DNA of 64,000 nucleotides from Dictyostelium discoideum (lineage: Eukaryota), in the NCBI GenBank assembly GCA_000004695.1, contig CM000155.2, forward strand, positions 992,001 to 1,056,000, read 5' to 3'. How positions within the stretch are numbered: position 1 is the stretch's first letter; the number at the start of each line of letters is the position of its first letter. The notes beneath the pieces were generated by a model that made no database searches, was not told where the DNA came from, and was given only the letters and a program-made list of their open reading frames with translations. A program made the position numbers and the translations under genes. Below are positions 21,213 to 21,985 of the stretch, piece by piece.

Positions 21213-21860
21213 GGTTAATCATAATTTATCCATTAAAGGAAATAAACAATAATTAATAGTTTTATTTATGAATTTTAATTTAAAAAATTTAATTTTTTTT
21301 TTTAAGAAACCATAATTATTTCGGTTATCTAAATAGAATTTTGGTTTGTTAAAATATGCAAATCCAGTTATTAATGCCATGATATCTCTATATGCGTAGG
21401 TCCTAGAAAGGTCATAGTTTACTCATTTATAACACCATTCGAAATATTCCTTGTGATTGTCGTTTGGATAATTAAATAATGGATAGTTTGGTTTTGTTTT
21501 GACTATTTTGGGGTCACATTAATTCCAAGAGCAGATAACCATAAAATGTAATGTATTACATTGTTTAATATTAATAAGTTTTTAATAATCATAATATTAA
21601 TAATAGTAATAAAAATAATAATTATTAACAATAATAATTAAAATAATAATTAATTTATTTAGTTTTTTATATATTTTAGAGTTTTCGTTCGAAACTCCTC
21701 GGTGGAATATAACGAAAACTCGAAATTTATAAAAACTGAAAAAAATGAAAAAATAAAGTAGTTTTGATTCACGCTTTACAGCATTTATATAATATTAATT
21801 GTGTGTTCCTTTATTTATTATGATCAATATTGGGGGAGGAGACAGGGGAAACCACAACAT
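21213..21860. mobile_element. Remnant of a tRNA-gene-associated repetitive element (TRE-like?) lying 3' of tRNA-Ile
   Basis: The composition differs from the flanking AT-rich DNA. The distal end carries the motif 'TAATCA.TAATTTATCCATTAAAGGAAATA..AATTAAT', which recurs at 50816 and 51660. It sits directly beyond the exB box of the tRNA. Confidence 0.35.
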
Positions 21861-21869
21861 TAAAAAAAG

Positions 21870-21880
21870 AGAATCGAACC
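21870..21880 (-). promoter_or_regulatory. External B box (exB) of tRNA-Ile: GGTTCGATTCT, about 33 nt downstream of the tRNA, followed by a T7 run
   Basis: The sequence matches the B-box consensus GGTTCGANTCC; duplicated downstream B boxes are a known feature of Dictyostelium tRNA genes. Confidence 0.6.
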
Positions 21881-21912
21881 GGTGATCCATTAAACTATTT
21901 TATAAAATTGCT

Positions 21913-21985
21913 TGCTCGATGCAGGGATCGAACCTGCGACCGTGGCGTTATTAGCACCACGCTCTGCCGACTGAGCTAATCGAGC
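21913..21985 (-). tRNA. tRNA-Ile (anticodon AAU), 73 nt
   Basis: GCTCGAT-TA-GCTC-AGTCGGCA-GAGC-G-TGGTG-CTAATAA-CGCCA-CGGTC-GCAGG-TTCGATC-CCTGC-ATCGAGC-A. The acceptor stem is 7 bp and perfect, and the D, anticodon and T arms are canonical. Confidence 0.9.

Follow-up and report, generated by a model that had tools for sequence, protein, structure and literature searches.

Downstream of each of the two tRNA genes in a 64,000-nucleotide stretch of Dictyostelium discoideum DNA (NCBI GenBank assembly GCA_000004695.1, contig CM000155.2, forward-strand positions 992,001 to 1,056,000; hereafter the window, in whose own numbering all coordinates are given), we identified DNA that carries a common motif of about 30 nt. 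We favor the interpretation, to which we assign a probability of roughly 0.55, that this DNA consists of decayed, 5′-truncated TRE3-type retroelement tails stacked downstream of the two genes, with the motif as their conserved 3′ terminus. The TRE3 elements of D. discoideum are TRE3-A, TRE3-B, TRE3-C, and TRE3-D, the first of which was formerly known as Tdd-3.

The position and orientation of the motif-bearing DNA are the core of the argument. TRE3 elements insert 40–150 bp downstream of tRNA genes, with the transcriptional orientation of the tRNA gene and an oligo(A) tail, and are positioned by the internal B box or by an external B box (exB) (PMC5911963; PMC5006619). ARAGORN and Rfam concur that the window contains two tRNA genes, each encoded by the minus strand; motif-bearing DNA lies downstream of two of the two, and every one of the three motif copies has the orientation of these genes. 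The edge of the DNA beyond tRNA-Ile (remnant A) lies ~52 nt from the gene and that of the DNA beyond tRNA-Leu (remnant C) ~60–65 nt, after subtraction of a cofilin retrocopy that has inserted in between; both distances fall inside this published range, and each edge sits beside an exB-type box. The tRNA genes and their boxes are:

21913–21985, minus strand: tRNA-Ile, anticodon AAT (ARAGORN; Rfam RF00005, 64.1 bits)
21925–21934, minus strand: internal B box of tRNA-Ile (B-box match)
21862–21880, minus strand: exB of tRNA-Ile, GGTTCGATTCTC at 21869–21880, then T7 at 21862–21868 (read from the sequence)
52809–52891, minus strand: tRNA-Leu, anticodon TAA (ARAGORN; Rfam, 49.1 bits)
52821–52830, minus strand: internal B box of tRNA-Leu (B-box match)
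52128–52138, minus strand: exB-like box of tRNA-Leu, TGTTCGATTCC (B-box match)

The exB of tRNA-Ile, GGTTCGATTC followed by the T7 run, is an exact B-box copy that starts 32 nt past the end of the gene on the tRNA strand; the initial annotation had noted this box and its T run at a spacing of 33 nt, and both are indeed present. It is the only exact match to GGTTCGANTC in the window. The exB-like box of tRNA-Leu, TGTTCGATTC (52129–52138), lies ~50 nt from the tRNA end when the cofilin insert is subtracted, and together with the two internal B boxes it accounts for the remaining same-strand B-box matches. Six B-box matches were found window-wide against 2.6 expected, a count that is not significant by itself; the exB assignment is instead argued from the positions of the boxes relative to the tRNA genes. 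A Dictyostelium exB is a copy of the B-box consensus that lies on the same strand as the tRNA gene and downstream of it by a few tens of nt, and such a copy is found at both Ile and Leu. A 10-mer from the core of the shared motif, TTTAATGGAT, also occurs at 21884–21893 (minus strand), within the 32 nt that separate tRNA-Ile from its exB, probably by chance in AT-rich DNA.

The motif and the DNA in which it lies comprise the following features:

21216–21248, minus strand: motif copy A, reading ...TATTTCCTTTAATGGATAAATTATGATTAA on the minus strand
50818–50846, minus strand: motif copy B (pattern match, blastn)
51659–51691, minus strand: motif copy C (pattern match, blastn)
21210–21861, minus strand: remnant A, ~650 bp of putative decayed element DNA (composition; collinear blocks with C)
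21185–21209, minus strand: A-rich tail of remnant A, A10-CAT-A10 (read from the sequence; weak alone)
21198–21278, minus strand: ~80-nt 3′-terminal unit common to A and B (blastn, alignment)
50796–50904, minus strand: copy B, a 3′-terminal fragment only (motif at 50818–50846, extension to 50878)
51659–52127, minus strand: remnant C, ~470 bp (motif match, blastn, alignment)
50905–51658, no strand assigned: B core, ~750 bp, GC 35% (composition)

That the terminal motif recurs at two sites beyond the tRNA-Ile locus, as had been claimed for this DNA, was borne out. With up to three mismatches allowed, TAATTTATCCATTAAAGGAAATA matches at 21222, 50824, and 51665, all on the plus strand, where 0.01 matches would be expected, and none of 100 shuffled sequences attained three. 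Read on the minus strand, the copies have the layout ...TATTTCCTTTAATGGATAAA-nnn-TGATTA(AYCAATAT), in which the motif is a 3′ terminus as read on the tRNA strand. What follows on that strand is A10 and then CAT-A10 in A, A10 in B (plus-strand coordinates 50796–50805), and (TA)n in C. As ~17% of low-GC positions have such an A run within 30 nt, the A tails are modest evidence.

Similarity among the copies is anchored at this 3′ end. Because unmasked repeat finding across the window was dominated by simple-sequence repeats, we rely on masked blastn, in which A and B match over the whole ~80-nt unit (21198–21278 with 50800–50878; 85% over 81 bp, E = 4e-20) and B and C over 29 nt (50818–50846 with 51659–51687; 96.6%). 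The motifs of A and C are 88% identical over 33 bp, and two further blocks link these remnants, one of 70% identity over 70 bp (21387–21456 with 51698–51767; E = 5e-9) and one of 73.5% over 34 bp (21802–21835 with 51836–51869; E = 0.003). The two blocks are collinear with the motif, and A holds extra AT-rich DNA. Judged by these alignments, the bodies of A and C are distantly related, and homology that is both 3′-anchored and collinear is the pattern of 5′-truncated or diverged copies of long interspersed nuclear elements (LINEs) with a common tail. The bodies of the copies at the two tRNA genes had been noted as not obviously alike, but they are not entirely dissimilar; B and C share only the 29 nt.

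Read along the tRNA strand, remnant A has a 5′ edge that abuts the exB and its T7 run, less than 10 nt from the box, and a 3′ end that consists of the motif plus TGATTAACCAATAT. It had been described as ~650 bp of compositionally distinct DNA. This is so in comparison with the flanking intergenic DNA, since GC content is 22–36% in sub-blocks 21300–21599 and 21700–21899 and 5–14% in the neighboring spacer, but not in comparison with the window as a whole, of which the mean GC content is 22%. Since an A11 run on the minus strand (plus-strand coordinates 21293–21303) precedes the ~80-nt unit at 21198–21278, this unit may be a separate, extremely 5′-truncated insertion. One minus-strand frame of remnant A is interrupted by only five stops over 200 codons; mononucleotide shuffling puts P at about 0.0015, a weak indication, as AAT-type simple repeats inflate it. 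Remnant A also contains a perfect inverted repeat of 11 bp, GAGTTTTCGTT...AACGAAAACTC, whose arms are separated by 21 nt (21678–21722) and which neither B nor C has. Strings resembling a zinc knuckle, one in A (~21540) and one in C (~51950), were considered as homologous features and discarded, as they are not collinear with the blocks of A/C similarity.

Going distal from tRNA-Leu, the order is the cofilin insert, the exB-like box, remnant C, the B core, and the short copy B fragment. Remnant C begins directly past the exB-like box, at a distance of less than 10 nt, and ends in the motif. Its motif had been placed about 510 bp beyond the exB of tRNA-Leu; the distance is 437–469 bp, and ~510 bp is instead the distance from the end of tRNA-Leu without the cofilin insert. 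The DNA at 50816–51690, previously taken as a single copy, is better read as a short 3′-terminal fragment (50800–50904) and an unrelated block of opposite strand bias (50905–51658).

That block, the B core, lies between motif copies B and C, with TATATAT-T24 at its left edge and (TA)n at the other. Its plus strand is rich in A (A 0.44, T 0.22), a bias opposite to that of A and C. It had no protein, Pfam, or Rfam match, and its depletion of stop codons is not significant (P = 0.10). The B core may be a retroposed sequence of minus sense that carries an A24 tail or, equally, a unit transcribed from the plus strand, with a Dictyostelium-type TATA/oligo-T promoter in front of it. In a second assembly, GCA_054883475.1, a plus-strand gene model resembling an eIF4E-binding protein (PF05456; window ~49781–51117) has a last exon that extends over motif copy B into the first part of the B core, with its stop at ~51115–51117. 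This is probably a mis-called terminal exon.

The proximal part of the tRNA-Leu locus records a different kind of insertion:

52162–52781, minus strand: processed cofilin retrocopy, 620 bp (open reading frame [ORF]; PF00241 annotation on the identical locus; sequence)
52144–52161 and 52782–52799, minus strand: target-site duplication (TSD) of the cofilin insert, TTTATTCGGTTTTTATTC as read on the plus strand (exact 18-bp direct repeat)

The insert has a 41-nt leader, an intact, intronless ORF of 137 codons (52327–52740), and an AATAAA ~20 nt before an A9 tail. By its uninterrupted ORF, its poly(A) signal and tail, and its exact TSD, it is a clear-cut processed retrocopy. It lies between tRNA-Leu and the exB-like box, ~10 nt past the tRNA terminator and in the tRNA orientation. 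The presence at this site of a genuine product of target-primed retroposition, with an 18-bp TSD, AATAAA, and A9 and in the same orientation as the other units, shows that such machinery has acted at tRNA-Leu, and it suggests that tRNA-targeted retroelement machinery moved a cellular cofilin mRNA in trans.

Both loci can be compared with GCA_054883475.1, in which the cofilin protein is an exact match and identity is 99.5% over 20 kb. We sought an empty site in this assembly and found none; both loci are occupied identically. The assemblies differ at the two loci only in long T runs upstream of tRNA-Ile (22021–22088), with 10 gap positions and no substitutions.

How might such an arrangement have arisen? 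From what is established for TRE elements and LINEs, RNA polymerase III (Pol III) factors at an internal or external B box would guide an element-encoded endonuclease and reverse transcriptase (RT) to the site. The endonuclease would nick DNA downstream of the tRNA gene, at a distance of a few tens of nt, and reverse transcription would be primed at the element RNA's 3′ end, yielding a copy that is usually 5′-truncated, lies in the tRNA orientation, and directs its oligo(A) tail away from the tRNA gene. Remnants A (21210–21861) and C (51659–52127) would be such truncated and heavily decayed copies, and the ~80-nt units at 21198–21278 and 50800–50878 would be very short 3′-terminal ones. The same tRNA gene can be hit repeatedly by TRE elements, giving rise to tandems (PMC5006619 supplement), and repeated hits on tRNA-Leu could have built a stack in which the oldest copy is distal and the youngest, the cofilin mRNA copied in trans, is proximal.

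The motif, TATTTCCTTTAATGGATAAAnnnTGATTA on the minus strand, would in this scheme be where the element RNA ends, a conserved 3′ terminus. It is probably the sequence that the RT of the element recognizes, and such a role would explain why the motif is 88–97% identical while the bodies are 70% alike or unalignable. For the related element TRE5-A, the 3′ untranslated region is essential for retrotransposition, 5′ truncation and mobilization in trans are typical, and the ORF2 protein is believed to bind the C-module (PMC3159450).

Several observations weigh against a TRE3 origin. The initial annotation had recognized a TRE3-type integration pattern, and the succession of tRNA, exB, element, and motif does match the published rule; the family name, however, is one that we infer from position, orientation, and elimination rather than from sequence, and it is unproven. 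Translated protein searches on X-masked frames, Pfam, and a profile search detected no remnant of an RT, apurinic/apyrimidinic endonuclease (APE), or zinc-finger domain in A, the B core, or C; 3′-end remnants of 0.1–0.65 kb need not contain ORF2 domains. No direct repeat of at least 8 nt other than T runs surrounds A, B, or C, and these missing TSDs carry little weight, as TSDs are expected to be erased in old copies within AT-rich spacer. The A-run tails are weak given their background, and C ends in (TA)n. A structured recognition element is unsupported, as RNA folding of the 3′ ends gave a 3-bp invariant stem, z-scores of −0.4 to −1.4, and no significant structure or covariation. The strand bias of the B core falls outside the TRE3 model, and the cofilin copy, which lacks the motif, indicates that the motif is not strictly required for mobilization here.

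Wider searches returned nothing that would name the family. Metagenome and prokaryote collections, scanned for exact 20-mers, yielded chance matches only, mostly of 20–23 nt, the longest being 31 nt at 90% identity in an unrelated contig (L012). Three repeat-rich dictyostelid loci, from D. discoideum, D. citrinum, and D. dimigraforme (L021, L022, and L025), picked with DGLT-A and Skipper-2 seeds derived by optical character recognition, contain DIRS and gypsy-type elements and nothing like A, B, or C, in a sample that is small and may omit Skipper-2 long terminal repeats (LTRs). An Rfam search over the loci returned the two tRNAs only, and a search of literature text for the motif sequence gave nothing relevant.

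Could the units instead belong to other classes of element? We know of no short interspersed nuclear element (SINE) described in D. discoideum, and it seems doubtful that the units are undescribed short, non-autonomous, poly(A)-tailed retroposons that use the TRE3 machinery through the ~30-nt tail. The concentration of identity in the terminal 29–33 nt, with differing bodies, is the classic LINE/SINE tail-sharing pattern, the units are short (80–650 bp), no coding remnant was detected in any copy, and non-autonomous TRE5-A copies are known to be mobilized in trans (PMC3159450). However, there are only three copies, with neither a conserved 5′ end nor an internal Pol III promoter in common, and heavy decay of 5′-truncated autonomous elements is the simpler account. 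A fuller version, in which a SINE-like family is sent to tRNA genes by a ~30-nt 3′ recognition sequence and the same machinery copies mRNAs such as that of cofilin, is a shade more doubtful. We regard it as unlikely that the units come from Skipper-2 (formerly named DGLT-P), as solo LTRs or as remnants of its internal sequence, although copies of this element are highly degenerate and lie downstream of tRNA genes (PMC5006619) and the tRNA-Leu locus has two direct motif copies 841 bp apart. The published distance of Skipper-2 is 8–23 bp (PMC5006619; PMC5911963) rather than the ~52–65 nt seen here, and the two direct copies are alike over 29 nt and nothing further, unlike an LTR pair. Moreover, blastn detected no LTR-like long direct repeat, the three-way homology boundary is AATCA and not a TG...CA terminus, and the gypsy-type loci in our small sample show no similarity.

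It is quite improbable that the units are remnants of a terminal-inverted-repeat DNA transposon or miniature inverted-repeat transposable element, such as DDT-S or thug, whose proximity to tRNA genes would be coincidental. A gapped inverted match within A (21208–21258 to 21793–21830) scores 29, where the best of 1000 shuffles reached 28.5, but this match was chosen post hoc and limited to the two ends, and in unrestricted tests the whole-element inverted-repeat scores of A, B, and C fall inside the shuffle range. C has no inverted arm, the motif has no inverted copy, and a single orientation relative to the tRNA in all three motif copies is unexpected for a cut-and-paste element with symmetric ends. 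It is more improbable still that the motif is a host cis-element (a 3′-end, terminator, or promoter-proximal signal) or codes for the C terminus of a small host ORF. One frame reads ...(L/I)FPLMDK(L/H)-TGA in all three copies, and the TATATAT followed by T24 on the plus strand by copy B, ahead of the B core, resembles a Dictyostelium promoter. However, the frames upstream of the tail are broken in B and C, and the tails, which were added to a second translated search, were unmatched in collections of 5.8 billion or 1.84 billion sequences, a result of low power for matches of ~13 residues. The profile of the three stop-free tails against the 1.84 billion representatives had as its sole match a spurious repeat protein (P0121) with INYQVFPLGVG units. 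A host element would also leave unexplained why the motif is restricted to the tRNA strand and to sites downstream of tRNA genes.

If the units are TRE3-type tails, what do they add? TRE remnants at tRNA genes are part of standard repeat annotation. Since ~61% of the tRNA genes of D. discoideum have one or more TRE elements (PMC5006619), remnants at both tRNA genes of the window are an ordinary and already documented feature of this genome. Two aspects, the cofilin retrocopy and the conservation of the tail alone, are mildly interesting, and nothing else is. A 3′ terminus kept at 88–97% amid decayed or differing bodies is a candidate cis-element for recognition by the TRE3 RT; to our knowledge, TRE3 recognition has not been studied as the TRE5-A C-module was. 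The tRNA-Leu locus offers a clean natural case of a cellular mRNA, that of cofilin, retroposed into a TRE3-type target in the TRE3 orientation, which would imply mobilization in trans with target specificity retained.

Among known systems, the units most resemble TRE3 elements: they lie 40–150 bp downstream of a tRNA gene, beyond a B box or exB, in the tRNA orientation, with putative A-rich tails pointing away and truncated copies in tandem. They differ from TRE3 elements in having no ORF1 or ORF2 domain remnant and no TSDs, and in the (TA)n end of C. With Skipper-2 they share degeneracy and a place downstream of D. discoideum tRNA genes, but they have A-rich tails, no LTR-like repeats or TG/CA termini, and a distance beyond 8–23 bp. 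Like 3′-tail-sharing LINE/SINE pairs of the stringent type, they are conserved only in the last ~30 nt before the tail and are otherwise dissimilar; in contrast to such pairs and to the TRE5-A C-module, they show neither a conserved stem-loop nor covariation, the motif has a putative role only, and a motif-less cofilin mRNA has inserted at the same site. The cofilin insert itself, which is intronless and has an AATAAA, a poly(A) tail, and an 18-bp TSD, is like a processed retrocopy of the L1 type. Unlike L1-type retrocopies, it has an intact ORF and was not placed at random, but was targeted to a tRNA gene in a TRE3-like position and orientation.

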